A stretch of 64,000 nt of DNA from Psilocybe cubensis (GCA_017499595.2 CM039005.1:2356001-2420000); one strand, 5' to 3'; positions 19,642 through 62,176 are shown, numbered from the stretch's first letter. Program-made: numbers and translations. Notes: generated from the sequence alone by a model not told the origin.

Positions 19642-20573
19642 AGCTCTTATGATAGCTGTTACTGGCACGAGAATTACATTGTTAGCAGGAGAATTGTAAG
19701 TTATTCAGAGAATTTGGCTGCCTCCTCCTTTGCAATTTGACGGCCTTTTTCCTTTGAAGAACGACCAATATGCTTACCAAGGAACGAGATTCGACTAGTC
19801 ATTAATAATCGTCAATTCTCGGTCTCGCTCAATTGGAGACACAGTCAAACTGGGCTTGACATTTGTTGGACAATATTTTTAGCCTTCCTGTCTGTGGGCA
19901 TGCGTCGAGGCTCGTAATGTCAACCGTCCAGAGTCATGGGGAATTTAAAATCGCAGTATAAGTACAGCTTTTGTTGCGCTCTCTGCATCGGTCTGTTACC
20001 TAGAAAGTGTACCGCTCCTAGACAGACTTCGATATGATGTGACACGTTTGGGGGAAGTGGCGTTCAATCGGCAGACACGGCATGGCATTTTTGACATCTC
20101 GCCTAATTTCACCCCTCTGGATTTTACACTGACCACGCTCTACGTACTCGTTAGAGGGTTATAGATTCCCGCTTCTCGAGGCTTCTACGGATTGATAACC
20201 AACCAGAAAGGTGTTAGACACAGAAATTCCCTTGTTTTTTTTCATCGCTTCTATCGAGGGCTATATCATAGTACTCCCAAGTACTTAAGTCTCACAACAG
20301 TTGGGTGCTACCGCGCCAGGCTGCTCTTCACACGCCGAAGTCAAGTTGTTTTTGGATTTTTGGGGCATGAATTATGAATAGACCCCAACATTTCGGCATG
20401 AAAAATTTATGGTAGCATAGGTTTCTGAGATATCGGACTCAGCAAAGAACATCTGCAGCTGGGTTACCGTAGATACGACGATCTTCTTCACCCCCAAAAA
20501 CATGTACGTGTTCAAACTCCTGTTGCGTTTTTAGAAAATTACGACTGATGGTTACAAATTCCACAATCAGATA

Positions 20574-25391: not shown

Positions 25392-25917
25392 TGTGGATTG
25401 TGTTGGATGGGATGTAAGATGAGATGCTGGGCCAAAAGATTATCGCCCAGACCGAAATCTGCGCTGACCCTAACCCTAAGTTGACAAACACGGACTTGTC
25501 ATCATCGATGAAATCAACGCTATTTCAGGAGCGTCGCAGTCTATTCGTGCTCGCTCGCTCGGACATTTATGTATACGTGGAAAGCGGAATACGCAGAAAG
25601 AAAGGATATCCACATGTACAGCGACACTTGTGGGCAAGAAGCAGCCATTTCGGATCTACAGAGGGCGACTGCGCAGAGCGAAGACGAGGACAGACGCGTG
25701 CCCGGGGATAAGAATACAGAAGAGAGTACCTATGACCATATAATACATTTTTACAGGACATTTCCCGAGAAAAACAGAATAAAGCGAGGTCAGGAGGGGC
25801 GGCGGCGACATACTGGGGGACGCTTACGTGATTGGCACGTGCCCTTTTGTCAGTTTTGCAGTCTTTTCTTGGCGGGGCTAATACTACGACCACTGAACTC
25901 TGACCACAACGACCACG

Positions 25918-28900
25918 ATGCCTGCAGACCACGACGACAGGGACTACGACAGAGACCGCGACAGAGACAGAGACAGGGACAGGGATACAGACCGCACTGA
26001 CAGGGCCTCTAAGCAAAAGCCAGCAGCCGTCTCAAAAAGTATCTCTTTTCTTGTTGTCTCCCGAGTACCCAATATCTCACATCTGCGCTCTCTCCAGGCA
26101 AGGATCTATCGCATGTGCCCTGCAAATTTTTCAAGGTCGGTGGATGCACTGCTGGATCCTCGTGTCCCTTCTCCCATTCTGCGGTAGAGCCAGGGGGCCA
26201 GAAGGAGACCTGTACCTGGTTCGTCAAGGGCAACTGCAAGTTTGGCCACAAGTGCGCTCTTGCACACGTCCTCCCCGGGCAGAGCATGGCTATGGACAGG
26301 AAGAACAAGAAGGCCGCACAACATGCTGCTGCAGCGGCTGCAGCATCGGGCACCACCACCACCACAAGCGCAGGATCAGGATCTCATGGCAGCGATAAGG
26401 GCGCCAAGTCGGGCAGCGGCGGCGGGCGGGTCAAGCGCGATTCCTCGACGGCCAGTGGAGGCGGAAACCGTCTCAGCCTCCTCGCTGGAGGTGCGACTGC
26501 ACCCACCCGCGACGTTAACCCTGCCTCCGGATCATCTTCGTCTGGCCGCCCTCCAATGAGTATGGCACTCAAGGCATCCATCTCGCCCTCTGCACCCGCC
26601 CCGCCACTCAAGGACACCGACTTTTTTGCCCCGCTCGAGGAGATGGAGGGGATCTCGTCGAAAGCTCAGGAGAAGGAGGATAAGGATAAAAAGGCGTCGG
26701 GGGCCACGACGACTCCTGATGAAGACTCTGCCACCTCGGACGACCAAAAACAAGCTACTACAGCTGCTGGAGACACATCTGCCGCATCTGTACCACTCCC
26801 ACCTTCTGCCCCTCGGCCCTCTACCACCACCCAAGCCGCAGCTGTCGACTTTGGTCCGATAGGCTCGCCGCCAAACTACCGCGCCGGTCAACCCATCTCT
26901 CCCTCCCGCGCCTCTAACACTAACAACTTCTCCCCTGGCACCTCACCTCGTGCATATGGACAACATCTCAACGGGATCACCATCAGCTCTTCCCCATCCA
27001 CTAATGCCAACGCCAATACCAACAGTAATAATAACCTCGGTTTCCTTTCGTCATCACCTTTCTCTGCCCCTGGCACACAAAGTGTGTTCCTCACCACGGG
27101 ATCGTCTTCTTATGCCGGTGGCGGAATGGGTGGGATGGGTATTGCGGCTAGTCTCGGGAGTGGCCTCGCCATGATGGGCGGGGGTGCTGGACGGGGAAGG
27201 CGTTGGGCAGATGCGGACGGGATGGACATGGACGGCGTTGGCTCGCCTGGCGCAGCCCCCAAGTCGTGGGGAGACTTGCTGTCCAAGTCTGTTAATGCTC
27301 TGCGCACGCAACACGGGAATGGGTATGGCGCTAGAAGTGGGTACGATATTAGCGTTGAGTACGAGGGAGACGATGGGGCTGGGTTCGGCGGGCGTAGGAG
27401 AGGCAAGGTGAAGGATGATGAGGCCGTGGAGGACGAGGATCTGGAGGATTTCTTGCCGAGCTCGTTGAATGATTTGTTGACGCCGGAGGAGCGGAGTCGC
27501 CGAATGTCGAGAAGCAACTCGGGGCAGACGTCTGGCGGGGTGAGTTATTTGACAAGCGCGCTGGCGAACGCGACGAACCAGAGTATTGCGGAGAATGCGG
27601 GTGCGAACAGCGGGCAAGCGGGTGGTGTGAACATTGCTAACAACAGTGCGAGCAACGGGGGCGCGGCGCTGGGTCATCGGTACTCGCGCTCGGTGCCCGC
27701 GCCGTCACTGCTGGGTGATATTAAGTCCATTTGGGCGGATTCGTCGTCCGCGCTGCCCTCTTCTCCTCCTGCGACTAACAACAATCAAACGCATAGGGGC
27801 ACGCCCTCGATTTCGCGCTTTGATAGCTACCTCTCTGCATCGCTCGCCCAGTCTTCGCAGGCGTCTTCGTCTCAGCAGCACTATGGGATGGACGATGGCG
27901 GGCTGAGCATGAGCATCGGAAGCGCAGGCACCGCTTCCTCGCTGGGCATGATGAGTCCGAGCAATGCCAGTGCCGCGTTCCTCCCTGGCCTGCAGCAGAA
28001 CTATCTCAATGCCAAGGCCGCGAAGCTGCAGGCGCAGCAGCAAGCGCAGTTGGGGTATGGTCTGGGGGGTATTGGGAGGCAGTTGAGGGGTGCGAGCAAT
28101 CCGTTGTTCTCCTCGACCGGGAACGGAAGTGCGAGTGGTAACGGAGCAGGGAATGGGAATGGTGGGGCGAATAGCAATTCTCTGGCAAGCAATTATATGG
28201 GCCTTGGGCTGCCTGCATCCGCGTCCGCGGGCGGCGCGACGTTCCAGCACACGCATGGCGGTACGCAGACGACTTATAGGACGACGCCGTCGCCATTTGA
28301 TTTGACGCAGGGATTGCATGCACAAAATCAACAGCAGCAAACTTCACCGTATGGTCAGCAGCTCCCTCAGCAACGTCTCGGCGCGTCTACCGCTACCAAC
28401 AACTCATCCTCGACATCTTCTCCATTCTACCCTTCAAAGCAGTCCTCAACGTCCAATTCTACATCGACGCAGTACCCGACCTTCTCAGCCTTTGGCTCTG
28501 CGCTTGACGACCAGTCGCACCTCGGGCATTCGTCGCACTTGACTCAGCAGCAGCAACACCAGCAGCAGCTTATGCTCGGTGGTGGCGCCGCGCCACATCT
28601 GCTCTCGCCCAGCGCTCGCGCGTTGCAGCAGCATGCTCCCGGCCAGAGTCTGCCACAAGGTCTTGCAGCGGGATATTCGCGTATCCACGCTCTGCCTCCG
28701 CTGAAGAACGTTGTTGGGTCGCCTGAGAGCGGTGCGGGTGCTGGAGGGTATGGCGGCGATTGGGCGGCGGGAAGCGTCGGGGGGACGAATACGAATGCCA
28801 ACGCGGGAAGTACGGCTGCTACGGCCACGACACCAACGGGTACGGGCGCGGGGCTTGAGACGATGTTCTCCCGCCTCTCATACTCGGCTGCGACCCGCGG

Positions 28901-29123
28901 CAGTGGTACGGGTAGCCCTTCCGCCGGGAATGCTAATGCCAACCCGAGTGCTTCGACGACATCTGCCAACCCAAATGCACCTCCAGGGCTCTCGCGCAAC
29001 GTCAGCGGCGGGCGGTATCCCCCTGCCAGCGCTAGTGCTGTGCAGGGACAGGGACCACTTAGCCCTCTGGGCGGGCCTGTGATGAGCAGGGATGATGATG
29101 ATTTGTTCGACATGGATAAGTGA
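25918..29123 (+). CDS. Tandem CCCH zinc-finger protein (Lee1/Cps3-like) with a long low-complexity tail
   Basis: Two C-x7-C-x5-C-x3-H fingers (CKFFKVGGCTAGSSCPFSH; CTWFVKGNCKFGHKCALAH) and 'EDFLPSSLNDLLTPEERSRRMSR'. Probable first exon from ATG 25918 with RD repeats. Divergent from eIF2-alpha. Confidence 0.8.
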
Positions 29124-31924: not shown

Positions 31925-33679
31925 ATGCAAACTGTGGCGGATGCAGGTTCAGGGTCAAGAGCTTTGGCAACCTGTACTGTGAGAGGGTCAATAAGTATGT
32001 GATTATTGCTGTTTTCAACAAAACTACATCATGACGCCTTTGGAATCTGATTTACGTTATTTTTTTTTTACCGAATTTCAGACCATGATGAATATTTCCA
32101 TGGTTCGTGAACTATTTTATGTCGCTAATGACTCCAAAAAGTTGAGGCTTGGACATTGCATTACAACATTTCTCGTTCCTCGTGCTTTTTGTTGTTCTTT
32201 GACGTGGTTGTATCCTGCGTACAACTCCAACCCCCTCTGCCGGTTATACCCCTATCATATAACCCTCATCGCGACAAACCGTTAAACAATCACATTGAAC
32301 CATGAATACCGTCATTCCCACCTCCAGTCGCCCACATTGTCCGACCGGGAGAGACTCTGTCTTCCACTTTTCACGAAAGTCGCGTTGGTGGGAAAGGTGC
32401 AAACCAGGCTGTCGCTGTTGCGTTGGCCGCGGGCGGGGGTGAGTCATCGGGAAGTAACCCGGCCAAGGTGAAGTTTTATGGGACAATTGGGCACGATGGA
32501 GCTTGGATTAGGGAGAGAATGCGAGAGGTCGGTGTTGGTGTTGAGGGTATCTTGGTCTCGGAGGTGAGTTATCACGTTGGATATCCACTAGGGGGTTGGA
32601 TATTCGGATGGACAAGATGAAAAGAGAGAACTGGTATAGTCGGGCTGTGCAAAACACGAATATCTCATATGCGCAATGTTTGTAGACCGAGCTTACGGGG
32701 AGGGCAATTATTCAGGTAGACGAGAGAGGAGAGAATAGTATCAGTGAGTCGCTCCCTTTTATTGAATCTTGGGGTATTACCGGTCAGAGCTAATCATATC
32801 TTGCTTTCATTTGAATATAGTACTCTTCCCTGGCGCGAATTATAGCACCCTCCACGAAGACGCGTTCCGTGCCCAGTCTTTAACCACAGCAGGCACAGGC
32901 GGGTACTTCCCGCACAGCACACATCTTCTCTTGCAGAATGAAATTCCTTTGGAAGCAACCTTATCCGCCATACATAGTGCTAAAGTCTCGTCGCAACCTC
33001 CCAGACAAAGTCAACTTGGAGGCCAAAGGGATACTATTGTGATCATCAATCCCTCTCCACTCCCGGCGCGGGACACGATCTCCGCGTTCCCATGGGAGAA
33101 GGTCGACTGGCTGATTGTGAATGAGGATGAGGCAAGGGAGTTGTTTGAAGCGTTTGGCGGCGGCGTCGGCCGTGGAGGTGGAGATGGAAAGGTAGAAGCT
33201 GCGCGTGAGCTCGTGCATGCGCTCGGTGGGATGGAGGCGTTTAGGAATACAAGTGTGGTGTGTACACTCGGCGCAAAAGGGGTCCTGGCGCGTCAATGCG
33301 GAGTCGAGAAAGGGATGGAAATTGTGTATGTCCCTGCAGCGAAGCTACGAGGAGGTGTTCCAAAAGACACAACGGGCGCTGGCGATTGTTTTGCAGGATA
33401 CTTTGTGTGTGAGCTCATGGGGATGGCTGATGCTCATGATGATTCTGCCGATAAGGAGGGTACAGACTTCAAGTTGACCCAGATGGAATTGGAGAAGTTA
33501 TTGAAGGTCGCAGTGCAGGTATGTGCATCAGCTTTGAGGGTAATTTTTACCTCCACCTGAGCTGATTTGTTTACCCTTTGCACCATTAGGCTGCGGGTAT
33601 GTGCTGTGAGAAGAGCGGGACGATTGATAGTTATCCTACGAGAAGGGAAGTAGAAGAACGCATGAAGGACGGTGTGTAA
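31925..33679 (+). CDS. RBK1: Ribokinase (PfkB family)
   Basis: TVRGSIN, HIVRPGETLSS...GGKGANQAVAVALA, TGRAIIQVDERGENSI, LLLQNEI, INPSP, WLIVNEDEA, TLGAKG and DTTGAGDCFAG. Start codon uncertain. Confidence 0.9.
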
Positions 33680-35351
33680 GTTCGAACGCAGCCGGCCTCC
33701 GCAAACTCCTCCCGTTTAATCAGCTGAAAATATCCCAATCTTCCTTGCTTTCCGTCAAATACAAGCCCTTCCCAACGCCGGAGACTGCTCGTAATTCACC
33801 CGAACCAAGATAAATCTCATCATTGTAAGTTTAAATCGAATCATGCGCTTTCAATTTCAACCTCTGTCTGTGAGTCATCGAGTGGCACATCTTCGCTGAA
33901 CATCTCGTCAATGTATACTTTAAGGGAAGCACTATTCCAGTACTCTGCCACCGAAAACATCGTGTAAAATGGCATCCAGAACGCAAACCGTTCCACCTCA
34001 TAATACCAAAAGAAAACCCGAGTCATCGGTAGACAAAGGTGCTATGACCTTTGCAGTCAGCCACATTTCTAACGAGGTATTCTAAACCCACCTGTGTGTA
34101 ACCGATCATCGACATCGAGGCCCTATCATTCCTCCCGTGAGTACCATCTAACCCCTTTTCACTTTAATCGATGAGAAAGACAAAGGGAATGACTGTTTCT
34201 GACTTCTTTATGATTGATTATCGATCCGTAGAAGCCTCGAGAATCCGCATCCCTCTTACAAGTGTCCTGAGCGTGGTCTTTGTAAAATCCACAAAAGGAA
34301 AATAATTGAAGGACGGGGTAGCGGCCATATGGCGAGATGTCAAAAATAAATTCTGTGCCGTGTCTGCCGATTGTGTGTACTGACAGAACTTGGGAAGGAC
34401 GCCACTGCCTTTTGGTCTGCACCTCCACCGTATAAAGATTGGCTTGGGTGTTCAGTCCCCTCCACAAGCTCCCCCATCTCGTCTGCGGTGAAGACTGCAT
34501 CGAGTCTCTGCGGCCCTATATGGGCTTGAGACGCGTCTTCAATATTCACCACAACGACAGCGATATGCCATCGGGTGGCTGACCACTCGGTGGCGACGTC
34601 GCCAAAGGTATGCCACATTCTAACGCATATATACTTTTACTGACAATCTGCACCACAGGTCTATACGGGGACTCTATCACCACTATCGTCTGCGCGCCTA
34701 CCAAACGGGCGGTACAGCGGACGATAAAGGCCTCTGTCGCGCCTGTGGCGACATTGAGGCGCTGTCATGGGGCGTGCACACGCTGCACGCCCATTGGCAA
34801 AGCTCGTTCGATGGCATAAGCCGTAGACGAGGTCCTTGACCGGCGAGGCATTCTACGATGCCCGCCGGTCAGCCCCAAAAAATGTAAGTGGCTTTGTCTT
34901 CAGTCAGTTCATTCAAGCGTTTACTAATCTCTCTTCAACGCGTATTCAGGCTGCAGTTCCTTGATAAATGAGCATCTGATAGTTAAAGGTTCGTTAATGC
35001 ATACATCTAAGTTCTTCCTCACCTAACGCGTCGTTTGTTCTCAGATTCTAGCTAACGAATCATACCACTTACCAACGCGATCCTCATTCTACGGCCAAAC
35101 GCCGTCAAGGGGGTCGTTTCATCAATGGCGGGCGGGGCCGATTGCCCCAGCCTGCCCATAATATTTTAGGTGGGTAATGCTCTTGTTAGTTATGGTCCAG
35201 GACACTAACTGGTAATGCATTCAGACCACTATGCCTCGACGATAAGACTTTATAATAAGGTATGTTCTTTTTCTCGCACGTACGCTTTCATTCGGTCTGA
35301 CTTGATATGATTCAGTGTTATGTTATGGATTGCGGTCACCCACCACACAAC

Positions 35352-35710
35352 GCTACCCACATCCCATTTCCCCTACCATCCCCCGGCGAGGACCTGCAAG
35401 GTAGCGCAGGTCTGAGCTGGCAAGGGAGCTCGGATGGTAACCGCCAGCCTTTCGAGGCAGGCACTGTCGCTCGCTCAATTGAGTGGCGACAAAGGAGTCT
35501 CTCGCGAGACTCAACCTATCGCTTCCTGTTCATCGGGAAGCGATAACGACCTCTTCAGATTTCGCTCGAATGAGAGCATGGTTTGAAGAGGAATTTTTTT
35601 TCCAAAGAGGGGGCGGTGCGACGATTTGTTCGCACCGTCCTTGTGCAGCCTTGTCGTGGCCTCTTTGGCTTAGGTTGTACCCACGGGTATAACTGACCAA
35701 TAGCACATTA
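35352..35710 (+). ncRNA. Structured ~355-nt RNA module, copy L1
   Basis: GCTACCC...AATAGCACATTA unit with multiple hairpins and a 5' pseudoknot. One of six copies. Confidence 0.65.
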
Positions 35711-35980
35711 AAAATCAACCGGTATTCCCCACATTTTGTGAGTTTTTTCTATCTCAAATACATTGATTGTATCCAATCGCCCCAGCCAGTCTATCATAAA
35801 CCAGTAAGTAACAATCTTCTCGGTTATTGCCCAAAATACTAACTTCTTTTAGGTTCAGATTACTATGCTTCAACAATGAAATGCTATGCCAAAGTATGTT
35901 CTTGTTCAATTTGTATGGTTTCATTCCCAGCTGACTCAATGTGCTTTAGTTATGTTATGAGTTTCTTTTGACTCCACACT

Positions 35981-36336
35981 GCTACCCATGTCCCCATCCT
36001 CACTACCATCCCCCGGCGAGGACCTGCAGGGTAGCGCAGGTCTGAACCGGCAAGGGAGCTCGGATGGTAAAGGCCAGCCTCTCGAGGCAGGCACTGTCGC
36101 TCGCTCAATCGAGTGGCGACAAAGGAATCTCGCTTGAGATTCAATCTATCGCTTCCTGTTAATTGGGAAGCGATAACAACCTCTTCAGATTTCGCTCGAG
36201 AGCATGGTTTGAAGAGGGATTTTTTTTTCCGAAGAGGGGGTGGCACGACACTCGTTTGCGCCATCCTTGTGCAGCCTTGTCGTGGCCTCTTTGGCTTAGG
36301 TTGTGCCCATAGGTACAACTGACCAATAGCACATTA
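35981..36336 (+). ncRNA. Structured ~355-nt RNA module, copy L2
   Basis: Same unit. GAATCTC/GAGATTC replaces GAGTCTC/GAGACTC (compensatory change). Confidence 0.65.
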
Positions 36337-36834
36337 AAAATCCGCCAGTATCCGCCACACCTTGTGAGTTTTCTACCTTGAATCCATTTGTTGTCTACAT
36401 TAGTTCTGACCAGCATTTTCCTGTTGAAGATCCCTGTATTATGTGTCCTTCAAGAAGGTATGTTTGGGTCAACTGTGGGATTTTGTAACTTTTGCTAACT
36501 TGCTGGTTTTTAGAACATTTTTTTGTGTGATTTTGGTCAATATGCTCGTTGGACGGTCCAACTCCGTTCAACATCACTAAAATCCCTTTGCTGGCGGAGC
36601 CTCACTCGAGGTTCTCCTGCCAGTCGATCAGAATTAAGGTGAGCGTAATGATCGAATAATATCGTTTACAATGCTGACTCGGGATATACTCAGAAAATAT
36701 GCATCATGCTTCGATGATAATGTTATATACCAATGTACGCCCACATTCATCTTCATTATATTTATTTCCGAAACTGACTCGTAACTGATAGCTATATGAT
36801 ATGCATAACCATTGCAATGCTCAATGATCGAGCT

Positions 36835-37190
36835 GCTACCCACATCCCCTTCCCTCTACCATTCCCCAGCAAGGACTTGCCACGGGTAGCGTGAGTCCAA
36901 ACTGGCAAGGGAGCTCGGATGGTAACGGCCAGCCTTTCAAGGCAGGCACTGTCGTTCGCTCAATCGAGTGAAGACAAAGGAATCTCGCTTGAGATTCACC
37001 CTATCGCTTCCTGTTAATCGGGAAGCGATAACGACCTCTTCAGATTTCGCTCGAGAGCATGGTTTGAAGAGGGATTTTTTTTCCAAAGAGGGGGTGGCAG
37101 GACACTTGTTCGCGCCATCCCTGTGCAGCCTTGCCGTGGCCTCTTTGGCTGAGGTTGTACTCTTCGGTATGACTGACCAATAGCACATTA
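36835..37190 (+). ncRNA. Structured ~355-nt RNA module, copy L3
   Basis: Same unit with CCAG/CTGG and GGACT/AGTCC stem variants. Loop GGGTAGC is retained. Confidence 0.65.
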
Positions 37191-37921
37191 ATAAATAAGA
37201 ACCTCCTGTTTGCTTCCTCTTCAATTCACCGCTTACCTGACCACACTCCTTGTATGTTTGATTGATAGCTTGTTGTATCTTCTATACTTCAAGATCTGTG
37301 GTTGGGTTGTTTGTTGCATTTAAGCTTGTATCTCCGGTCAAGTCTGGCTCAGTGTAATACATGCGAGCAATCTGCCCCTTAATCGCTTTGATTTGAATGC
37401 AAATGCTACTTCGTTGAATTCGCGTGTATAATTAGACGCCCTTTGATGAATAACAGCGAGGTATGAAAAGACAAGGATTCCGAGACCATGTGCAAACTAT
37501 AGAAATAGAGCGTCTAAGAAGATACGTCAGATTTATTGTATGGTGTACGTCGGGAGAAGAAGTGTCCGTAGTTTCAATGTCTTCAGAAACTTCACAACAC
37601 CTGTCAAAGCAGCTGATCTCCCCTGCATTATACAATGTAGTCCCTGCTTCAGTAATGTCGGCGTTTAAATCTGTCAGTCTGTGGTATGTTTGGAAAGAGG
37701 GAATGGCCTTCTTTTTAGAAGTTACTAATTCATTAGTTAAATTGTTTAATAACAGACAAACCCTTGATTTCACGGACTTGGAAATTCGCCTAGACTAACA
37801 CCGTTATTTATACACAACATTCTAAGATTTCCCGTATAAATAAATGCTTTAGCTGAGTGTATAAATTCATAACCACCATCGAACATTTTGTCAGAACCCA
37901 AAGATCAACCACCTTTCCAAG

Positions 37922-38484
37922 ATGAAGGCCCTCTCCAGTTTCTGCCCTCTGTTTTTCGCGGTCGCCTCGTCAGTAATTCTTTCTCAGAGCTGTGATCCTA
38001 TTGTATCTCGTGTACGTTGTTTTCCCAGAGCTCCAAGTCAAATATACTTTTGTTCATTGTATTTATTATCCAACTTGTCGATGGTATCGTTTTTGGTCAC
38101 TGACAGTCCCCGGCCGACGAGGTATCCGTTATATTCTACAACGCGCCCAACCTCACCGGTTCCACCTTTGCTCCTGACAATATCATCCCGGGAGACTGTA
38201 CCACGTTACCCTGTCGCTGGGTTGGTCGAGCAGAAAGTCTGGTCATTGGCCCGGGATACACATGCACCTTTTTTGTGTTAGTCTTCACCTCTATCCTCTA
38301 TACGAGATCCATTTTTGAAATATCGATATTTACCGTGCCCGTGTTCTAACCGTACAGTATCGCTGGATGTGCGGGCTACGGAACCCAGTATAACGGGACA
38401 GTGTATCAGCTTCCCGCGAACAGCAATCCACCGCTGAACGACAACATTGAATCGTTTTCGTGCAATAAAGAAGTTAATATGTGA
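37922..38484 (+). CDS. Small secreted Cys-containing protein, beta/gamma-crystallin-like
   Basis: Signal-like MKALSSFCPLFFAVASS. Exons 37922-38011, 38107-38276 and 38358-38484 give VIFYNAPNLTG...CTTLP...AESLVIGPGYTCTFFVIAGCAG...LNDNIESFSC. Confidence 0.65.
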
Positions 38485-40901
38485 AGTGTGTGGGATGTGG
38501 AGAATCCTTGGTGTTTTATCGTCGGAGTAGGGAGTCGCTGATAGACTATGCTGTATGTCAGGAATGGCGTCTCCTCTCTTGTTGACAGTTGTCGTTAGCA
38601 TATGGATTTGAATGTGAAAGATGTATTGAGACTCGGGAGAATCCACTGAAAATCGGGAGAAGATGATGATCGCCCATCGGTCGCTGATGTTCATAAAGTG
38701 GCGGCGTATCTGTGTGCTAAATATGTTACCCACCCCGTTGCATTCGGCTATGTACACCTGAAGATTGTGGCTTTCTTTGCATGAAACCCATTCATCGCCA
38801 TGTATATTCCAACATTGACGATAGATACCTCGCATTGATTCGTCTGTCTTCACTTTTAGTACTCCATTGGTACACCTGATGGGCTCATTGGCGCCGGTTG
38901 AACGTCCGTACCTGCTGACGTCGTTGAAAATGGCTCTGTCAATCATCTGAATCATGTTGGGACGCCAGAATGACCATGATTTTTTCACATTTACAACCCA
39001 AATGCAACCCCCACTTTCCGATAGAAAGCTTCTGAATTTATATGGGTTTTAGGGTGTAAGAAAAATTGAATGAAGTCACTGTCACCGCGAAGGCTTGAGT
39101 AGGATAGTCTTGACGGGGTTTTGACGCCTAGGAGGGCATAAATGAATCATTGAAGTCGTGAGTTTGATTCGTTTGTAAGGGGAACCAAGGCTGCCCGCCC
39201 ACGCAGGCACGTCACCACACCTTTGAATACCTGGTGCTATCCTCGTCCCTTTTCTCCTAGATGGAGCGATGGGGGGTATAGATGTATGAGAGCTTATATG
39301 GCTGATTCCATTCAAGAACATAGACTGCAGGGTGGTCGACCTTCGATGTGGGCTCAGGGTGTTCATGGGTAAAAACATTCGCGCAGTTGAGCAGAACGCC
39401 CTCCCCAAATTGAAGTTATTTTCTGGTGGCATGCAATAGGCAATTAAAGTCGGTTTAATTTGTCCTATTACTTGAAGCTGAATTCAATGGAATAATTAGT
39501 GCTTAAACATATAAGAATCGGGCGCCCACAGGTAGGGAAGTTTCTGTCACCAGCCAAGTTTGAAAGTCAAAAATCGTCACTGTGTTTGTTTCGAGTTCGA
39601 TCGTTCCGATTCATTGATACACTCAGTCGAAACATGGTATGCAAAGGTCTTATCTTGAAATTGCCTACTCATCCTGTACTCAGACATGTCGGATGTGAGG
39701 CCCGAGGAGGATGTGAATGTGATCAACAGTTACGCATGGTATCGAGTCGTGAGCTAAATTTCTCTAGCCATGGAGCTGCAAATGGATCCGTGAGGCATTC
39801 CAGAGGGAGAGTTGATACTGTTAGGTGCAACGAGAGCTTGTACACACCACAAATGCCTATGTCTAATACGCTTCATGTCCTGCGCAATGCCGATCTCGCT
39901 ATTATGTCAGTAATTATGCTGACCCGGAGGTTCGGCTCGATGATGGCTGACCATGAAACCTGAAAGTACTAAAGCACAGCGAAGGATATCTATAAACTTC
40001 GAAGTAAATAAAAAATTGGCGCACTGGTTCACAGATTGGAGATGCTGGGAAATAGGTGAAGTGCGGGAACTGCTGACTGGTCCGTCGTGGGTGATTATTA
40101 AAATATAAAGCCGTGAATAGATCAACGGAGCCGCAACAAGCGTTCATCTCATTTGATAGACAATTTCTGACCTTCGTGACGTATATTAATCATCGAGCCA
40201 CGACATCAGAAAAGATATTCGATATGTTCGGGCCGTAGGCGGTTGGGTCTTTGTGATCTGCAGAAACGAGGCGAGTGTTATATAGTACGCTGATGAGTCC
40301 GGATCATGGTTGACCCCGTATAACACAAACACAAGCTCTTCACGACCTACAAGGGCCGTAAGGGGCCGTACCATCTATTGTCATGCGCATCGCGGAACTT
40401 GTGATTTAGGAGATCAGTATCCCCGAAATGGACTGTGTGGTTGCCTATGGCTGCAACTCTGATTATCGATGAAAATGGGGCGATAGAAGGTCTGAATGTA
40501 GAAAGGCTACTCGACATCTTCACCGAGTGGTTGTAGGATTGGTTTAGTTTAGCGTAAAGAGACCTCAGAAGACAAGACGGGTTCAAGGTAAGCGCGGGCC
40601 AAGAGATACAGCGCGAATGCTCCCGCATGAAGAAGTTGGGGTAAATGCGGGGAAGCACATAATCCAGCTCTCCTCTAGGCGCTGCCCAGATGACTCACCA
40701 GCGCTCTCCATTAAACTCGCGGACACCCATAAGTAAACGGCCGGAATATGGTACAAAGTTATCGCAGCTCGAGTCGATGATTGGCCTGGGCGGAGTTCGG
40801 ACTTATCCGGGGGGCATGTGATAAGCGGATTGCAGCTTCGGCCTACCGGTATAAGTTGAGCTTGCAGCGGACGACGACGCCAACGTTGACCTCTTTCCAC
40901 A

Positions 40902-42532
40902 ATGTCTGCAGGATTCAGAATAACGCCTGCGATATGGGACAAGATACACCATTTTGCTTCGTTTCCACAGACGGGAGGTTCGTCTCAAGCTTGGTCTTTG
41001 TCTGATGCCGTCTGACAGTGCGCTAGTCTCTCTCCAGCAGATGGTCTTGTTCGGTCAGAATCCCAGCCAGGGCACCCTGCTCAAGGCTAGCCAGTTCCTA
41101 GCAGGTGCGTCGGGCTTCTGAATATCGACAGCACATCTCACACCGCTTCACGTAGAGGAGCTACCCGTGCGCCTAGCCCACCGCGTCAAAGAACTCGACG
41201 AGCTACCGCACAACCTCAGCGCGATGCCGTCCATCAAGAAAGTCAAAAACTGGTACGCCCAGTCGTTCGAGGCGAGTCACATACCTTGTGCGACCAACCC
41301 TGTTCTGACTCCACCTCCCGCAGGAACTCATCACTTTCCCCCCCATCGTGCTTCCGCCGAGCATCCGCCAGGCGTTGATGATAACCAGACCGGACGAAAT
41401 CCATCTCCCTGAATCCAAACCCAATCTCTTCAACGACCCTTATTCAAATCCGTACCAGTCCCATGTGAACGGGAACGGCAACGGGAATGGCTTTAACAAG
41501 CTCAAACTCCGGGTACCCATGGAACGAAGGTCCGCACGATTGCCCTTTTTCTCACATCGAATGTCAACCAACCCATTGCATTTCCAGATATTACGCGAAT
41601 ACTAACAACATTACCTGGCCGCCCGAGGTCCAGGATTACAACAAGCGGTTTACCAAGCTGCTCGAGCACATCAAGAGCCGCCACGATCCAACAGTCACCA
41701 CCGTCGCCCAGGGTGTTTTGGAGTGGAAGCGGAGTCAGAATGCGCGCCATATTGGGCTCGACATGCAGGCCTGGCTCGATCGCTTCTACCTCTCGCGTAT
41801 AGGCATCCGATTTCTCATTGGACAGCGTGCGTCACTATTTCTGTCTTTGCGTCATTATGCTCATTAGTGTTAAAGATGTGGCGTTGAATACACAGCAGGC
41901 ACATGCGGACTATGTTGGAATCATCTGTACAAAAGCTGTTCGTCCTCTTTCCCATTCTGCGGAAATACGCACGCTAAGCACTTCCATAGAACGTGCACGA
42001 TATCGTGCAAGAAGCCATCGAAAACGCGCGTTTCGTGTGCGAAGAACACTACGCCATGTTCAAAGGGCCGCCTGTGCAGCTCATCTGTCCCAAAGACCTC
42101 ACTTTCCCTTACGTTCCCGGCCATCTCTCACACATCTGCTTCGAGCTGCTTAAAAACTCACTGCGTGCGGTTGTCGAACGATATGGCGTCGACCAGGAAG
42201 ACAACTTTCCCCCGATCAAGGTCGTCGTCGTTGAGGGTAAGGAGGACATCACGATCAAAATTTCCGATGAGGGAGGAGGCATCCCACGCAGTGCCATTCC
42301 TCTCATCTGGACGTACATGTATACCACTATGGATAGCCAGGGAATTGACGGCGATTTCCAGACAAACGATTTTAAGGCTCCGATGGCTGGGTTTGGGTAT
42401 GGGCTACCACTGTCAAGACTGTACGCGCGTTACTTTGGGGGCGATCTACGCCTGATATCCATGGACGGTTTTGGAACGGACGTGTATATCCATCTGAACA
42501 GGCTGTCGAGTAGTCGCGAACCCCTGCCATAG
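40902..42532 (+). CDS. Mitochondrial pyruvate dehydrogenase kinase family (PDK/BCKDK) protein
   Basis: FASFPQTG-VSLQQM..FG, EELPVRLAHRVKEL, LDRFYLSRIGIRFLIGQH, FELLKNSLRA, ISDEGGGIP and AGFGYGLPLSRLYARYFGGDL. Confidence 0.93.
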
Positions 42533-43664
42533 TTGTTTGCGCTGTTGGCTCTCTGTTAGTCTGTCGGTCGTGCTAAACGGATCGGAATGGAATGGTAGAG
42601 GAAGCTTTTTCGTGTATGATACCTCATTTTTTTTTATTTTGTTTTGCATTGGAGGGCTGGGTTTCAGTGGCAGGCAGGCGGATGCGGATGCATCTCGCCA
42701 CATAATGCCTGAGCTTTCTGTTTCACGGCCTCCGCTTCATTCCCCTCCCCCTTTTGCAGCCTTGCCCCCTCGTCGCGCCTTTCCTTCGTTCCGTCGTTCT
42801 ATCGACACATGTATGTTGTGTAATGTGTATTATTATTAATGGCGAATACCGTTGTATTATATACAAGTATATCAAGTAGAATGAATGAACAATCGTACAT
42901 TCGTAGAACTGGAATTAAATACTATTAAATTAGAGCGACCTTGCCTGGTATAGATGTATCTCATTCGTTCAATTTTTGGTTTGTACGAACCCACGCGCTT
43001 TTGAGTTGTAATTAATTTGGGGTGGAGGTAACCCAAACACGAAGAGGTCGTTTGTCGCTCTCCATGAAGCAATTGGGTTGAGCTACTTTACCGTGACTAG
43101 TTCACTTGCCAGCTCAAACTACATTACACTGAACGTTTGTGCTCACTGCTAGGGATGGTCAGATAGAGGGAATGATAGTAGCACTGCACTCGGAGGTTGT
43201 GTGCTGTCCCATAACAAGTCAGTTTCAAAAGGAATAAATCATTAAGGGAAAGCGACGTACGTTAGTATAACGCCTCATTGTCAAAGCGTGATCGCAGAGT
43301 TTTCTGTCTATACCGAAAATCAGTACTGTAATTGTAGGCAAAAGTATGACATGTTGCTCACATGGATCATACTCGACCGACTGGAGCGAGAGAGCTCCAC
43401 CAGCCAAATGGATGTGGATCACAAACTTCATGGATGGCGTAAGTTATTCACACAAGGAATCTAATAACCAAAGAGGAGTCAGATGCAAACTCGAATGCAA
43501 CAAAATGGCCAAAGCACAAACCTTGAAGCAGACAAGTTACAATAAGCTATCCATCAAGTACGCAAGAAAAGGGGTCGGATAAGCTGAGGATAGCGAATAG
43601 AAAATGATCGCAGAAACTCACCAAATGGATCGAAGAGAAAGCAACCAGGAGGATTTTTCATTAT

Positions 43665-44015
43665 TAATGTGCTATTGGTCAGTCATACCCAAGAGTACAA
43701 CCTCAGCCAAAGAGGCCACGGCAAGGCTGCACAAGGATGGCGCGAACGAGTGTCGTGCCACCCCCTCTTTGGAAAAAAAATCCCTCTTCAAACCATGCTC
43801 TCGAGCGAAATCTGATGAGGTCGTTATCGCTTCCCAATTAACAGGAAGCGATAGGGTGAATCTCAAGCGACATTCCTTTGTCGTCACTCGATTGAGCGAA
43901 CGACAGTGCCTGCCTTGAAAGGCTGGCCATTACCATCCGAGCTCCCTTGCCAGCTTGAACCTACGCTACCCTGCAGGTTCTCGCTGGGGGATGGTAGGGA
44001 AAGAGGATGGGTAGC
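43665..44015 (-). ncRNA. Structured ~355-nt RNA module, copy R3
   Basis: Reverse complement of the unit. AACCTGC/GTAGGTT, CCAG/CTGG and TGTCGT/ACGACA are compensatory variants. Confidence 0.65.
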
Positions 44016-44508
44016 AACTCGATCATTGAGTGTTGCAATGGTCAAGCATAACATATAGCTATCAATTACTAGTTAGTTTCGGAAACCAATGGAATGAAGA
44101 GAAATATATGCATACATAGTATATAACCATATCATCGAAGCATGTTGCATATGTCTGATTGTATCCCGAATCAGTATTATAGACGATATTATTCGATCGT
44201 TACACTCACCTAAATTCTGATCGACTGGCAGAAGGACCTCGAGTGAGGCTCCGCCAGCCAAAGGGTTTTAGTGTTGTTGAACGGAGTTGCGTTCAACGAG
44301 CATATTGACAAAAATCACACAAAGAAATGATCTAAAACCAGCAAGTCAGCAAAAGTTACAAAATCCCACAGATGACCCAAACATGCCTCCTTGAAGCACA
44401 CAAAATATAGTAATCTACAACAGAGAAAATGCTGGTCAAAACTAATGGAGAAAAAAATTGGATTCAAGATAGTAAACTCACAAGGTGTGGTGAATACCGC
44501 AAGATTTT

Positions 44509-44863
44509 TAATGTGCTATTGGTCAGTTATACCTATGGGTACAACCTAAGCCAAAGAGGCCACGACAAGGCTGCACAAGGATGGCGCGGACAAGTGTCGT
44601 GCCATCCCCTCTTTGGAAAAAAAATCCCTCTTCAAACCATGCTCTCGAGCGAAATCTGAAGAGGTCGTTATCGCTTCCTGTTAATCGGGAAACGATAGGT
44701 TGAGTCTCGCGAGAGGCTCCTTTGTCGCCCCTCGATTGAGCGAGCGACAGTGCCTGCCACGAAAGGCTGGCCTTTACCATCCGAGCTCCCTTGCCGGTTC
44801 AGACCTGCGCTACCCTGCAGGTCCTTCCCGGGGGATGGTAGGGGAAAAGGGGATGTGGGTAGC
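44509..44863 (-). ncRNA. Structured ~355-nt RNA module, copy R2
   Basis: Reverse complement of the unit. Confidence 0.65.
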
Positions 44864-45133
44864 TGTGTGGAGAATGAACTAAACTCATAGCATATCTAAA
44901 TCATATCGAGTCAGCTTGGAATGAACACATACAAATGAAAAAGAGCATACTTTGGCATAAGATTTCATCGTCGAAACATAGTAACCTGAACCTAAGACAC
45001 ATTAGTATCTGGGACGATAACCAACAAGATTGTTGCTCACTGGTTTGTAATAGACTGACTGGGGCGATTGGATACAATCAATGGACTTGAGATAGAAAAA
45101 ACTCACAAAGTGTGGGGAATACCGGTGAATTTT

Positions 45134-45492
45134 TAATGTGCTATTGGTCGGTTATGCCCGTGGGCACAACCTAAGCCAAAGAGGCCACGACAAGGCTGCA
45201 CAAGGATGGCGCGAACGAGTGTCATGCCATCCCCTCTTTGGAAAAAAAATCCCTCTTCAAACCATGCTCTCGTTTGAGCGAAATCTGAAGAGGTTGTTAT
45301 CGCTTCCCGATTAACAGGAAGCGATAGATTGAGTCTCGTGAGAGACTCCTTTGTCGCCACTCGATTGAGCGAGCGACAGTGCCTGCCTCGAAAGGCTGGC
45401 CTTTACCACCCGAGCTCCCTTGCCGGTTCAGACCTGCACTACCCTGCAGGTCCTCGCCGGGGGATGGTAGGAATAACGGGGATGTGGGTAGC
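45134..45492 (-). ncRNA. Structured ~355-nt RNA module, copy R1
   Basis: Reverse complement of the unit. Terminal hairpin GTTGTGCCC/GGGCATAAC compared with GTTGTACCC/GGGTATAAC in L1. Confidence 0.65.
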
Positions 45493-47830
45493 GGCCCAAT
45501 TATTGAGCGTTGCAATAGTTATGCATAACATATAGCTAATAATCACCAGTCAGTGTCGGCAACAAATATAATGAAGATGAATGTGGGCATACAAGAGTAT
45601 ATAATCTTATCATCGAAGCATGTTGCATATTTCTGGTTGTATGGAAATGGGATGTGGGTAGCGTTGTGGTGGGTGACCGAAATTTATAACATAACTCTAA
45701 ATCATATCAGGTCAGACCGAATGAAAGCGTACGTGCGAGAAAAAGAACATACCTTATTTTAAAGTCTTATCGTCGAGGCATAGTGGTCTGAATGCATCAC
45801 CAGTTAGTGTCCTGGACGATAACTAACAAGAGCATTACTCACCTGAATTGTCATGCGCGGGCTGGGGTAATTGGGCCCGCCCGCCGTTGATGAAACGATC
45901 CCCTTGACGGCGTTTGGCCGTAGAATGAGGATCGCGTTGGTAAGTGATGTGATTCGTTAGCTAGAATTTGAGAAAAAACAACGCGTTAGACGAGAACGAA
46001 CGTACATGTATGCACTAACGAACCTTTAACTATCAGATGTGCATTTATCAAGGAACCGCAGCCTGAATACGCGTTGAAGAGAGATTAGTAAACGCTCGAA
46101 TGAACTGACTGACGACAAAGCCACTCACATTTTCGGGGGCTGACCGGCGGGCATCGTAGAACGCCTCGCCGGTCATGGACCTCGTCGACGGCTTATGCCA
46201 TCGAACGAGCTTTGCCAATGGGGGTGCAGCGTGTGCACGCCCCATGACAGCGCCTCAATGTCGCCACAGGCACGACAGAGGCCTTTATCGTCCGCTGTGC
46301 CGCCCGTTTAGCTGGCGCGCGGACGATAGTGGTGATGGAGTCCCCGTATAGACCTGTGGTGCAGATTGTCAGTAAAAGTATATATGCGTTAGAATGTGGC
46401 ATACCTTTGGCGACGTCGCCACCGAGTGGTCAGCCACCCAGTGGCATATCGCTGTCGTTGTGGTGAATATTGAAGACGCGTCTCAAGCCCATATAGGGCT
46501 GCAGAGACTCGATGCAGTCTTCACCGCAGACGAGATGGGGGAGCTTGTGGAGGGGAGTGCACACCCAAGCCAATCTTTATACGGTGGAGGTGCAGGTCAA
46601 AAGGCAGTGGCGTCCTTCCCAAGTTCTGTCAGTACACACAATCGGCAGACACGGCACAGAATTTATTTTTGACATCTCACCATATGGCCGCTACCCCGTC
46701 CTTCACTTATTTTCCTTTTCTGGATTTTCTACACTGACCAGCGACCACGTTCGAGGCACTCGTCAGAGGGCTGTGGATTCCCGAGGCTTCTGCGGATCGA
46801 TAATCAATCAGAAAGAAGTCAGAAACATCCATTCCCTTTGTCTTTCTCATCGATTAAAGTGAAAAGGGGTTAGATGGTGCTCACGGGAGGTTGATAGGGT
46901 CTCGATGTCGATGCTCGGCGGCACACAAAGGCGGATTTAGAATGCCTTTCCAAAAAAAAAAAATGATGATTTCTCTGAGGGTCTTAGCACCGTTGTGGAA
47001 GTAGTGCTTCCCTTTAAGTATACATTGACGAGGTGTTTGGATTTCTTGAAAAAGAGTGACCACTCCAAGGGTCGTAGCCCCTCCGTACCAACGACCTGGG
47101 TGCTCCATTGATTTTTTTACCCTGAACAATTTACAATCAAGACACGATTCCATACGACGTCCGGCGGTCGGCGACAGTGGGAACGGAATCAGGATGACGA
47201 CCTATAAACTTGTAGATCAACCAAAATCAAAATGACCAACAAAAAAGGTATTATAAAATATACAAAAAAGCAACAACAATGACCGCCAAAAGACAAGACA
47301 CATAAACGCAGATAGGTATTAAGATATTAACTAGTAGGAAAAAAGAAAATCAAACAAACAAACAAGGAGGCAGGGAAATGGGGAAGGAGGTTACGATGAT
47401 GATGGGAACAGGCAGAATGGCAGAAATTGGAACTAGAAGTGAGTTGGAGTCATGTGAAAAGAGAAAAAGAAAAGTACGTGGTATGCAAGCAAGCAAGCGT
47501 GAAAAGTCAGTGATTAGAATGAAGCAGGATATGGGATGGGAATGGGAGGGGAGAATACAGGAACGGGTGCACAAACAAGAATCAGTATGACAGAAGAAGG
47601 AAAAAAATTGAAAATGAAAACCACCAATGAAAAATTCAAAAAAAAGAGAAAACGCAACCCGAAAGGGTAGGTATTAATCGATACGCGGTATAATTCCTTT
47701 TCAACACCCCAGCACTTACGCCTTGCCTCACCTAGACGTCGGCCCCCTTTTACGAATCCGCCTTCTCCATTTGTGATTTGTTTTGCCCTTCTTCACCTTC
47801 AATGGGCTAACGCCACATACATACGCATCA

Positions 47831-50499
<2,669 letters not shown>

Positions 50500-52637: not shown

Positions 52638-52720
52638 GGCGCTATAGTGTAGTGGTTATCACTCAAGATTCTGATTTGATTAGAGTTCTTGTAACCCCGG
52701 TTCGAATCCGGGTAGTGCCT
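52638..52720 (+). tRNA. tRNA-Gln (anticodon CTG) with an 11-nt intron
   Basis: Acceptor GGCGCTA/TAGTGCC, D-loop AGTGGTTA, anticodon stem CAAGA/TCTTG around TT-CTG-A plus intron, T-arm CCCGG-TTCGAAT-CCGGG, followed by a T-run Pol III terminator. Confidence 0.92.
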
Positions 52721-57192: not shown

Positions 57193-58299
57193 CATGGACA
57201 TGGACCCCTCCCAATTGCCTCCCACCACTCCTTCTGTGGAAGAGCTCATGCATCAGGTCTAGCTCCTTACCCAAGAGTTGAATTTTCTTAGACAGCAGCA
57301 GCAGTCATCATCTACTCTACCACACCCTCAGCAACCAGTCAGTCAGTCACCATCATCACCACCACCACCACCTGCTGCTCTAGATATTCACTCTTTCCCT
57401 ACCCCCCTGTTGCCCCTTCCTGTTCACACTCTGTCATTAAAGTCTCACCTCCAGATCCATTTGATGGTTCTATGGAGAAGGCAGAAAACTTCCTTAGTCA
57501 GCTCAAATTATATTTCTATGGGAAAGGGATTACGGATGACTTTCAGAAAGTTATTTGTGCTCTATCTCATATGAAAGGAGGTACTGCTGGGAAGTGGGCA
57601 TATGAGAAGACTAAAGTAATAGACAATGCTCAGTCCCAAGAAGGTTTTTGGGCTGACTTTGTTTATGAATTTAGGGAAGTGTTTGCAGATCCAGACCCCT
57701 CCAACACAGCTAAGCATAAAATGCACATGCTCAAGCAAGGCAGACAGACTGCTGATGAGTATGTTGCTAGCTTTAGGGCTCTGATCTCAGATACTGGGTA
57801 TAATGATGCTGCTTTGGTAGACCAATTCAAGGCTGGGCTCAATGAAAATCTCAGGAATGCAGTCTACTATGTTCCTGACATGCCCAAAACCTTGGATGGA
57901 TAGATTAAATGGAGTACTAGGCTAGATAGGCAGTGGAGACAGAGTGAGGCCTTTACCAAGTCTCTTTCCTCCTCCTCATCTTCTCCCTTTCTTAAAGCCC
58001 CAACTCCCAAGGCTGTTCCTAAGCCTACTCCAAATCCTCCAGTCTTTTCCAACGGCAGCTCAAGGACCTTTGGTGCTCAGGCAAAGCAATCAGATGTAGT
58101 TCCCATGGAGGTTGACTCTGGATGGAAGTCAGTTAGGCCAATTGTTTGCTTCAAGTGCAGAAAGCCTGGTCATAAGGCTGTAAACTGCAGGTCATCAGTT
58201 AACATCAATGCTATGACCCATGAAGAACTGGCTGACTACTTTGGGAAATTAATCTTGGAAGGCAAGGAGCAGAAAGATGAGGAAAAGAAAATTTTTTAG
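57193..58299 (+). pseudogene. gag: Retrotransposon gag with premature stops
   Basis: PDPFDGS, Retrotrans_gag-like core (LKQGRQTADEY...F..GLN) and zinc knuckle CFKCRKPGHKAVNC. TAG stops near 57260 and at 57901. Confidence 0.85.
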
Positions 58300-58307
58300 A
58301 AGCACCA

Positions 58308-61300: not shown

Positions 61301-62176
61301 AGAAATTGAGCAGTATCTTAGACTCTTTATAAACCATAGACAAGATGATTGGGTTGAATGGTTAGCTCTAGCTGAATTCTCTTATAACAATAGAGTTCAG
61401 GCTTCAACCAGGCAGACACCATTCATGCTCAATAATGGCAGACATCCCAGAATGGGCACTGAACCCCTTAGAGATAGTAAAATGGACACTGTGGATACCT
61501 TTGTGAAAAATATGGAAGAAGCCAGGAAAGAAGCAGAGTCTGCACTTAGAAAAGCCGCTAATGATATGGCTAAATTCTATAATAGACACAGAGGTACTCC
61601 AACTCAGTACAAAGTTGGAGATTGGTATGGTTGGATGGCAAGGACCTTAAAACTGATAGGCCCTCCAAGAAATTGGATGATAAAAGATATGGGCCTTACA
61701 AAATTATCAAAGTTATTAGCCCTAATGCCTATGAGCTTAAACTGCCATCTACCATGAAAATCCATCCAGTGTTCAATGTGGTTAAACTTCTACCTTATCA
61801 CCCAGATATTGTAGAAAGAAAGCCTCCTTCTAGACCACCACCTGTCATTCAAGGAAAAAATCCTGAGTGGGAAGTTGAATTTATCAAGGACAGCAGACTT
61901 TTTAGAAACAAACTTCAATATTTGGTCAAGTGGAAGAACTATCCTAATGAAGAATGCACTTGGGAGCCTGCAGAGCATTTGAAAAATGCTTCTAAGGCTA
62001 TCAAGGACTTCCATGCCAAACATCCTTCAGCACCTAGAAGGATTTCTGCTGTGACCTTTGATAGACTTTCTTTCACTCCTATTATTAACTTTACTGAACC
62101 TCCTCCTCTTCTTAAACCCTCTAAACTAACCCATTCATGTGCACATTGTGGAAAATGTGCCTTAGAGAGGGGGTGA
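58308..62176 (+). CDS. pol: Retrotransposon pol (protease, RT, RNase H, integrase, chromodomain), frameshifted near 61620
   Basis: LLDSGAT, YMDDILI, ADSSDYATGAVL, GHPG...CDRC, SVDF...CDRGPQF...GQTERVN. GPY motif and chromodomain (WEVEFIKDSR...YLVKWKNY...TWEP) lie in a second frame. Confidence 0.92.

Follow-up and report, generated by a model that had tools for sequence, protein, structure and literature searches.

A repeated ~355-nt structured RNA domain in the exons of two spliced non-coding genes of Psilocybe cubensis

We analyzed a 64 kb stretch of the Psilocybe cubensis genome (GCA_017499595.2 CM039005.1:2356001-2420000, 64,000 nt, one strand, 5' to 3'; hereafter the window), in which a repeat search and MAFFT alignment identified six copies of a ~355-nt unit. 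The best reading of these copies is that they constitute one repeated, independently folding RNA domain, selected for its structure, of a lineage-restricted long non-coding RNA (lncRNA). The modules are part of a larger spliced transcript of about 2 kb that is non-coding and structured throughout, and the comparison of the six copies supports hairpins kept by compensatory change.

Searching the window with nhmmer and a profile of the six copies returned exactly six full-length matches (E-values of 5.6e-131 to 3.9e-128), located at 35352-35712, 35981-36338 and 36835-37191 on the + strand and at 43664-44015, 44507-44863 and 45132-45492 on the - strand. An earlier description of this DNA, made without database searches (the sequence-only reading), had placed the copies within 2 nt of these limits. 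The modules and two further remnants, as we delimit them, are the following.

35352-35710, + strand: module L1, inside the predicted exon 35316-35737; minimum free energy (MFE) -169.4 kcal/mol, z-score (z) -8.75
35981-36336, + strand: module L2, inside the exon 35950-36363; alignment and nhmmer
36835-37190, + strand: module L3, in the exon beginning at 36792; AATAAA at 37190-37195
45134-45492, - strand: module R1; alignment and nhmmer
44509-44863, - strand: module R2; alignment and nhmmer
43665-44015, - strand: module R3; alignment and nhmmer; last 60 nt covered by a contig of runs X11 and X12
43029-43182, - strand: decayed seventh module, downstream of R3; nhmmer E-value 5.7e-4
45643-45662, - strand: truncated module start (first 20 nt) of the right unit, joined directly to a spacer of L3 type

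Pairwise identity between modules is 87-93% in all 15 copy pairs, compared with 39-86% upstream and 41-92% downstream in the 50-65 nt on each side (39-92% for the flanks as a whole), which bears out the proposal that the modules are better conserved than their spacers. The conserved block begins with GCTACCC and ends with ACATTAA in 6/6 copies. The tandem duplication unit exceeds the module: blastn aligns 35138-35770 with 35773-36394 at 78.6% identity over 636 nt, and inside this unit the module is 90% identical and the flanks are 64-65% identical. Within one duplication event, therefore, the module was kept at 90% while its flanks fell to 64-65%. Non-orthologous module pairs are as alike as orthologous pairs, and this equal likeness of all pairs points to gene conversion, that is, to homogenised copies. 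The decayed seventh copy is identical to L2 at 97 of 156 aligned bases (62%) and retains standard pairs in only 21 of its 31 testable pairs; it is a natural control that displays the fate of the module without constraint. Together, the decayed module and the 20-nt truncated start show that the right unit formerly held more modules and has since been rearranged. The junction between the truncated start and the L3-type spacer also occurs in a DNA contig of run X6 (joint 35371 to 36695).

The six copies form two sets of three, carried by a ~3 kb unit that is duplicated in inverted orientation (~34075-37330 versus ~46947-43480), with an arm, 34284-35347 versus 45665-46728, that is 94% complementary over 1064 nt. 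Two convergent paralogous genes thereby flank ~6.4 kb of unrelated genes, and the inverted pair of three-module genes implies that the six copies are three module positions in each of two recently duplicated genes. The multi-intron gene would be of RNA polymerase II (Pol II) type and is preceded by a putative TATA box; its parts outside the modules are these.

34431-34436, + strand: TATAAA, putative TATA box of the left gene, read in the sequence
46576-46581, - strand: twin TATAAA of the right gene, identical in sequence to that of the left unit
34470-35315, + strand: head of the left gene, with about five short, GC-rich, hyper-structured exons and short introns between them
45697-46581, - strand: right-gene head, whose spliced exons appear in an X11 contig carrying right-unit letters
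36364-36791, + strand: spacer between L2 and L3, with four introns and three small exons (X11 and X12 contigs)

Expression and splicing were assessed in contigs of runs X11 and X12, whose type was only guessed to be RNA, no run being on record as such; the consecutive GT..AG joints in their contigs indicate that both hold spliced RNA. These joints are missing from the DNA run X6. In the spacer between L2 and L3, contigs of both X11 and X12 carry GT..AG joints that delimit introns at 36364-36429, 36456-36511, 36637-36691 and 36735-36791 and exons at 36430-36455, 36512-36636 and 36692-36734 (at two of the joints the cut may sit 2 nt further right), and the head intron 34987-35049 was also seen as a joint in an RNA-like contig. 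One contig per run spans 36275-36363, the three small exons and 36792-36851 or 36792-36866, joining the last 62 nt of L2 and a 27-nt tail to the first 17-32 nt of L3. Because the end of L2 and the start of L3 are joined via spliced spacer exons, the modules are exonic in a spliced transcript. Rather than free-standing genes with introns between them, they are exonic parts of a spliced non-coding gene of ~3 kb with many introns, in which the exons of one transcript hold several tandem units (three modules per gene, connected via spliced spacer exons).

For the left unit, seven additional short introns are predicted from a pattern scan for GT..YAG and a branch motif, and by this prediction each internal module occupies its own exon (35316-35737 and 35950-36363). 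Just past the 3' splice site of every module exon, including the right-unit counterparts, lies an invariant TATGnTATG (35319-35327, 35951-35959 and 36795-36803 in the left unit), and the 5' splice site falls exactly 27 nt past the module in L1, L2, R1 and R2. The invariant module end overlaps ATTAAA, or AATAAA in L3. TATG occurs 23 times in the left unit compared with 12.0 ± 3.4 expected, an enrichment due in part to GTATGT splice sites.

Right-unit letters are present in RNA-like contigs (records 3, 5 and 7), which shows expression and splicing of the right gene as well. A contig comprising the R3 end and R3-type downstream sequence reaches a depth of 645.7 in X11 and 31.8 in X12, the L2-L3 contig 43.4 and 33.2, respectively, and the depth ratio of the paralogues thus differs about 15-fold between the two runs. 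This contrast, in the region 37135-37194/R3 end, suggests either differential regulation of the paralogues or accumulation of 3' fragments. Run X10 covers only 34422-34644 and 37147-37194 at a depth of 2.5-3, which is too thin to draw on.

The modules had been described as a strongly folded, repeated element, and the folding calculations agree: the sense strand of L1 has an MFE of -169.4 kcal/mol (z -8.75), with 0/100 shuffles as stable, compared with -152.2 kcal/mol (z -7.19) for its antisense strand, and the sense fold is the stabler one in L1, L2 and L3. The RNAalifold consensus comprises 110 pairs, or 113 pairs (678 cells over the six copies) when the pseudoknot of the sequence-only reading is included, and standard pairs make up 98.5% of the 678 cells. 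The resulting fold is multi-branched with ~13 helices, of which seven are local hairpins while the connecting helices are uncertain; the last hairpin of the module, of 9 bp, ends in a loop of 4 nt and has an internal loop of no more than 4+2 nt. Columns vary less often at paired positions (41/220) than at unpaired positions (52/145; Fisher p 3.4e-4). Wobble pairs, which had been read as marking the strand of the surrounding introns, number 78 G-U cells (25 pairs) versus 3 A-C cells, counted on a structure that was predicted on the sense strand and hence favours G-U; despite this bias, the asymmetry agrees with the direction of splicing (GT..AG joints on the + strand in the left unit).

Exons outside the modules fold strongly as well. 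Exon 2 (34660-34884) has a z of -8.6 in the sense and -4.1 in the antisense orientation, and the values for exon 1, exon 4 and the spacer exon 36512-36636 are -4.9, -3.9 and -5.7, respectively; the spacers (+0.4 and -0.9), the sequence downstream of L3 (-0.7) and a coding exon used as control (+0.5) lie near zero. Structure was evident in every exon tested (z -3.9 to -9.1), and the introns are AT-rich and unstructured. The exons upstream of the first module are as foldable as the modules and belong to the same transcript, so that the finding of the sequence-only reading covers part of a larger structured RNA.

Both sides change in 8 of the 113 pairs (12 cells). Controls with partners slid by -3 to +3 columns gave 0, 0, 0, 1, 1 and 0 double-change pairs, and within-pair shuffles gave 2.8 ± 1.2, with 0/500 reaching eight; the pairing-preserving differences noted in the sequence-only reading therefore exceed the controls. 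The minimum-energy fold of L1, a structure that comes from L1 alone and thus cannot have been selected for covariation, yields the same eight pairs (slid controls 0, 2, 0, 1, 1 and 0). All five exchanges that the sequence-only reading had pointed out are present: CCGG/CCGG to CCAG/CTGG at pair 35-70 (GC in three copies, AU in two and GU in one, L1 being the G-U intermediate), GACCT/AGGTC to AACCT/AGGTT at pair 41-64 in R3, GAGTCTC/GAGACTC to GAATCTC/GAGATTC at pair 149-162 in three copies, TGTCGC/GCGACA to TGTCGT/ACGACA at pair 122-138 in L3 and R3 (the adjoining pair is broken in L3), and GTACCC/GGGTAT to GTGCCC/GGGCAT at pair 332-341 in R1 (G-U in L2). The eight covarying pairs occupy eight distinct positions and involve at least five copy lineages, with double changes in R3 alone, in L3 alone, in L1 alone (two pairs), in R1, in L3 and R3 jointly (two pairs) and in L2, L3 and R3 jointly. 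All eight sit in local hairpins, and six hairpins carry compensatory change. This covariation is drawn from six paralogues of one genome; the differences that X6 shows within modules are states of other paralogues and add no independent covariation.

The helices that would join the hairpins are less clearly defined. Among the six copies, covariation is absent from the hairpin-joining long-range helices and from an alternative terminal helix of 5' GCUA with 3' UAGC. The connecting helices can be drawn in two mutually exclusive ways, which suit all six copies equally well and neither of which covaries: one set consists of long-range GGCCA/UGGCC, CGAGGC/GCCUUG and GCAC/GUGC, the other of the GCCU/AGGC hairpin from the sequence-only reading plus CCAAAGAGG/CCUCUUUGG. 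That hairpin is thus compatible with every copy, but so is its long-range alternative. The pseudoknot proposed between the 5' GCTACCC and the apical loop GGGTAGC fared similarly, being compatible with the alignment (five invariant pairs and one G-U) but with one pair broken in L1 and no covariation. The tail-loop duplex is computed at -10.9 to -14.7 kcal/mol, and freeing both partners costs 2.9-6.3 kcal/mol; these predicted energetics are attractive but are not in themselves evidence of formation. Both 7-mers (GCUACCC and GGGUAGC) are kept while the stem below the loop covaries.

As expected from the sequence-only reading, no Rfam 15 family reaches its gathering score in the modules, and the only family found in the window is an unrelated transfer RNA (tRNA) at 52638-52720. 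Relaxing the threshold to E<=10 returned mir-1208 as the sole match over 34000-47000 (20.3 bits versus 90), outside the units; TtnuCD25 (13.5 versus 85) and Hrs13 (11.3 versus 52) for a single module searched as a 471-nt slice; and mir-6302 (22.9 versus 90), veev_FSE (16.6 versus 55) and snoZ163 (14.1 versus 39) for the head, which was searched as genomic DNA with its introns included. No core of a known self-cleaving or self-splicing class (hammerhead, twister, hepatitis delta virus (HDV)-like, hairpin, pistol, hatchet, group I/II) was found at E<=10.

Several other candidate identities were considered and rejected. Protein coding is contradicted by the sense frames, each of which has 3-5 stops in all copies, by indels of 1 and 4 nt that shift the frame, and by variable columns distributed 32/26/25 over the codon positions; Pfam returned 0 matches. 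As regards small nucleolar RNAs (snoRNAs), the module has no UGAUGA, a CUGA near the 3' end is present in 5/6 copies (CCGA in R1), and the multi-branched fold of ~13 helices does not follow the hairpin-hinge-hairpin plan of H/ACA RNAs. ACA followed by TTA closes the conserved block in 6/6 copies, and contigs read through that end. An intronic snoRNA host gene does not fit either, as the module ends are contiguous with spliced exons and it is the exons that are structured and the introns that are not. For tRNA-like ends, ARAGORN reported 0 genes in 33000-48000. Likeness of head exon 2 to the module (TATCG..CGATAA and CTGTCGC..GGCGACA) was set aside as the elements are not collinear and are missed by nhmmer. 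Scans for bacterial-type promoters and terminators gave no more than shuffle expectation and are irrelevant here. As for telomerase RNA, CCCTAA is absent from 33500-47500, the sole 7-mer match being CTAACCC at 34148, upstream of the TATA box.

Telomere-type repeats do occur elsewhere in the window: CCCTAACCCTAA at 25468-25479 (+) comprises two of them in unique sequence, ~530 nt upstream of a 1036-amino-acid (aa) CCCH zinc-finger open reading frame (ORF; 26013-29123), and may represent either an interstitial telomere repeat or a candidate template of a telomerase RNA. The segment 34166-34373 (+), just upstream of the left promoter, resembles 20065-20250 (-), 14 kb away, with 74-84% identity. 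Between the two RNA genes lies a pyruvate dehydrogenase kinase gene (41100-42550, +), a 180-aa exon of which is 100% identical to a Psilocybe cubensis protein. The window also contains a DUF6535 ORF, typical of Agaricomycetes, at 17569-18711 (+), a tRNA-Arg(TCT) at 52638-52720 (+), and a Ty3/Gypsy-type pol ORF (reverse transcriptase, RNase H, integrase) at 58281-61757 (+).

All copies in the window lie inside the two gene units. The summed X6 contig depth over the modules is ~7-43 compared with 9 for the unique head, or ~1-5 times, where depth is not copy number; no high-copy element is apparent in the window or in this depth. Searches beyond the window found no homologue, in collections among which fungal sequence could be present in the metagenome contigs and the protein libraries but in no other. 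When metagenomes were scanned with a 21-nt motif, 2 loci were returned, which blastn identified as chance matches of 23-28 nt; a 20-nt motif gave 0 matches in contigs of viruses and 0 in those of prokaryote genomes. Module translations served as bait for mis-called ORFs in two large protein libraries: an antisense stretch of 122 aa and a sense stretch of 81 aa each gave 0 matches, and a sense stretch of 91 aa gave 2 matches among 1.84 billion representatives, both to unrelated repeat proteins. Since the searched collections are not a fungal genome set, absence there says little. Full-text literature on Agaricomycete, basidiomycete or Psilocybe non-coding RNA yielded no such RNA at the level of listings and abstract openings.

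We propose, with a probability of roughly 0.4, that the modules are retained in the mature spliced RNA, where they would serve as a multivalent platform. Each transcript of the two genes would present three equivalent folded binding sites, and the platform may scaffold, concentrate or sequester a putative protein or RNA partner. The likely recognition surfaces would be the invariant unpaired segments, namely GCUACCC on the 5' side, GGGUAGC in the apical loop, GCAAGGGAGCUC in an internal loop, the U8 run and GACCAAUAGCACAUUAA on the 3' side, and the many introns may serve expression and export of a highly folded RNA. A number of observations weigh against this proposal. The RNA-like contigs skip the module interiors, so that whole modules in mature RNA are not established (repeats break such assemblies, and gaps in contig cover prove nothing), and poly(A) selection of X11 and X12 is not on record. 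All covariation comes from paralogues of one genome and lies within short local hairpins, in which gene conversion can spread variants; template switching at quasi-palindromes can also make double changes without selection. The heads of the two genes are ~92-95% identical, introns included, and as head introns are as conserved as exons, left-right conservation (~95% in the head) reflects recent duplication or conversion, not constraint. There is no known partner and no recognised protein-binding motif, the three patterns TGTA.ATA, ATACCC and TGCATG each occurring 0 times in both units. Finally, the searches described above brought no homologue from beyond the window.

As a competing explanation, the transcript may be a polycistronic precursor from which each module exon is freed as a discrete, stable RNA of ~355-420 nt, linear or circular, which we regard as unlikely but deserving serious attention; linear ends would be set by the terminal GCUA/UAGC helix and a bound protein, circles would form by back-splicing, and the spliced RNA would be precursor or by-product. 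The sharp limits of conservation, exactly from GCTACCC to ACATTAA in 6/6 copies, speak for such processing, as do the first four bases, pairable with UAGC just ahead of the invariant ACA, the resemblance of ACA plus three conserved bases to an H/ACA 3' end, the ATTAAA or AATAAA that overlaps the module end, and the placement of every internal module in its own exon with TATGnTATG and a constant 27-nt spacing to the 5' splice site. However, contigs from two runs connect the end of L2 with the start of L3 by linear splicing, a discrete species was not observed, and the expected snoRNA features are wanting (no hairpin-hinge-hairpin, no box C, CUGA in only 5/6 copies, and no snoRNA family match, the best C/D score being 13.5 bits versus a gathering score of 85). 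We hold it to be quite unlikely that the locus is a young, transcribed but functionless duplication, in which a hairpin-rich sequence was amplified in tandem and then duplicated as an inverted segment, with uniformity arising from gene conversion and the 'compensatory' changes from template switching in quasi-palindromes. This account is in line with the equal likeness of the 15 module pairs whatever their position, a signature of concerted evolution, with head introns as conserved as exons, with the rearranged right unit and its truncated module and decayed copy, with the confinement of all eight covarying pairs to local hairpins, and with the lack of a relative in the collections searched. 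It is contradicted by the 78 G-U versus 3 A-C cells, as expected for RNA-level selection rather than for DNA palindromes, by flanks at 64-65% next to modules at 90% within the same duplication, by the decayed copy (62% identity, 21/31 pairs), which shows what an unconstrained module becomes, by the confinement of structure to exons, and by the expression and accurate splicing of both genes, one contig having a depth of 645.7.

A catalytic or self-processing RNA, either a new ribozyme or a domesticated repeat of viroid-like or retrozyme-like type, seems very improbable: the size of ~355 nt, the dense multi-helix fold, the head-to-tail repetition and the possible tail-loop tertiary contact (-10.9 to -14.7 kcal/mol) would suit it, but the 471-nt slice matches no known ribozyme or group I/II intron at E<=10, spliceosomal introns lie between the copies, contigs run across the module boundary on either side, and the X6 depth (~7-43 versus 9), although not a copy number, is without sign of high copy. 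We would be equally surprised if the folded exons proved to be a cis-acting sensor that controls splicing or polyadenylation of its own transcript, by binding a ligand or through competition of the module-end ATTAAA with the 5' splice site 27 nt downstream. The constant spacing, the invariant hexamer where the module ends and the equal fit of two mutually exclusive connecting-helix sets in six copies could be accommodated by such a switch; with no ORF, though, nothing downstream is there to regulate, and no riboswitch family in Rfam matches. A more speculative idea, to which we give little credence, is that the 355-nt domain of ~13 helices is a eukaryotic counterpart of the large 'ornate' bacterial RNAs, with a defined three-dimensional fold and with the invariant GCUACCC and GGGUAGC pairing in trans rather than in cis; this would link the three modules of a transcript, and those of separate transcripts, head-to-loop into an RNA-driven assembly or condensate, or else the fold would be a new ribozyme. 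The tail-loop energetics and the two retained 7-mers beside a covarying stem are compatible with this idea.

Whether lncRNAs have selected folds at all is disputed, and to our knowledge covariation-supported structure is rare in eukaryotic long non-coding RNAs. Against this background, the element is an unusually clean case: a large, sharply bounded domain with six internal replicates and one decayed control, a clear strand, a contrast in foldability between exons and introns, and evidence of expression. Should relatives exist in other Agaricales, it would be a new structured-RNA family and a tractable system for studying binding by folded lncRNA domains; if confined to Psilocybe, it would be a young lineage-specific gene of local interest.

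Among known systems, human NORAD and Drosophila hsr-omega are spliced or polyadenylated Pol II non-coding RNAs with tandem units of a few hundred nt, whose multivalency is thought to be the point, and the Psilocybe transcripts resemble them in carrying several tandem units in one non-coding RNA. NORAD units are, however, set by short linear protein motifs, whereas the Pumilio-type pattern occurs 0 times here; both systems have little covariation-supported structure, compared with the 13-helix fold and compensatory changes described above, and in our case every internal unit occupies an exon of its own and the RNA has no known partner. Fungal and plant polycistronic snoRNA precursors and host genes are likewise intron-rich non-coding Pol II genes with several structured RNAs, and the ACA near the end of the conserved unit recalls them, but here the units are exonic, 355 nt long and repeat the same RNA rather than different guides, and they possess no C/D boxes, no hairpin-hinge-hairpin and no Rfam snoRNA match. 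With OLE, GOLLD and ROOL, the element shares the character of a large, many-helix RNA of unknown function recognised by its sequence and structure conservation, and its self-complementary tail and loop could link copies, although such oligomerisation is pure conjecture; those RNAs are bacterial or phage-borne, single-copy and unspliced, in contrast to a eukaryotic, exonic and triplicated module, and Rfam revealed no similarity in sequence or model. Retrozymes and viroid-like RNAs also consist of head-to-tail, highly paired units of ~350 nt, but the present element differs from them in its lack of a ribozyme motif, the introns between copies and its low copy number. Matching no described family, it fits the repeat-unit kind of lncRNA, in which its unusual unit is a large, covariation-supported fold.

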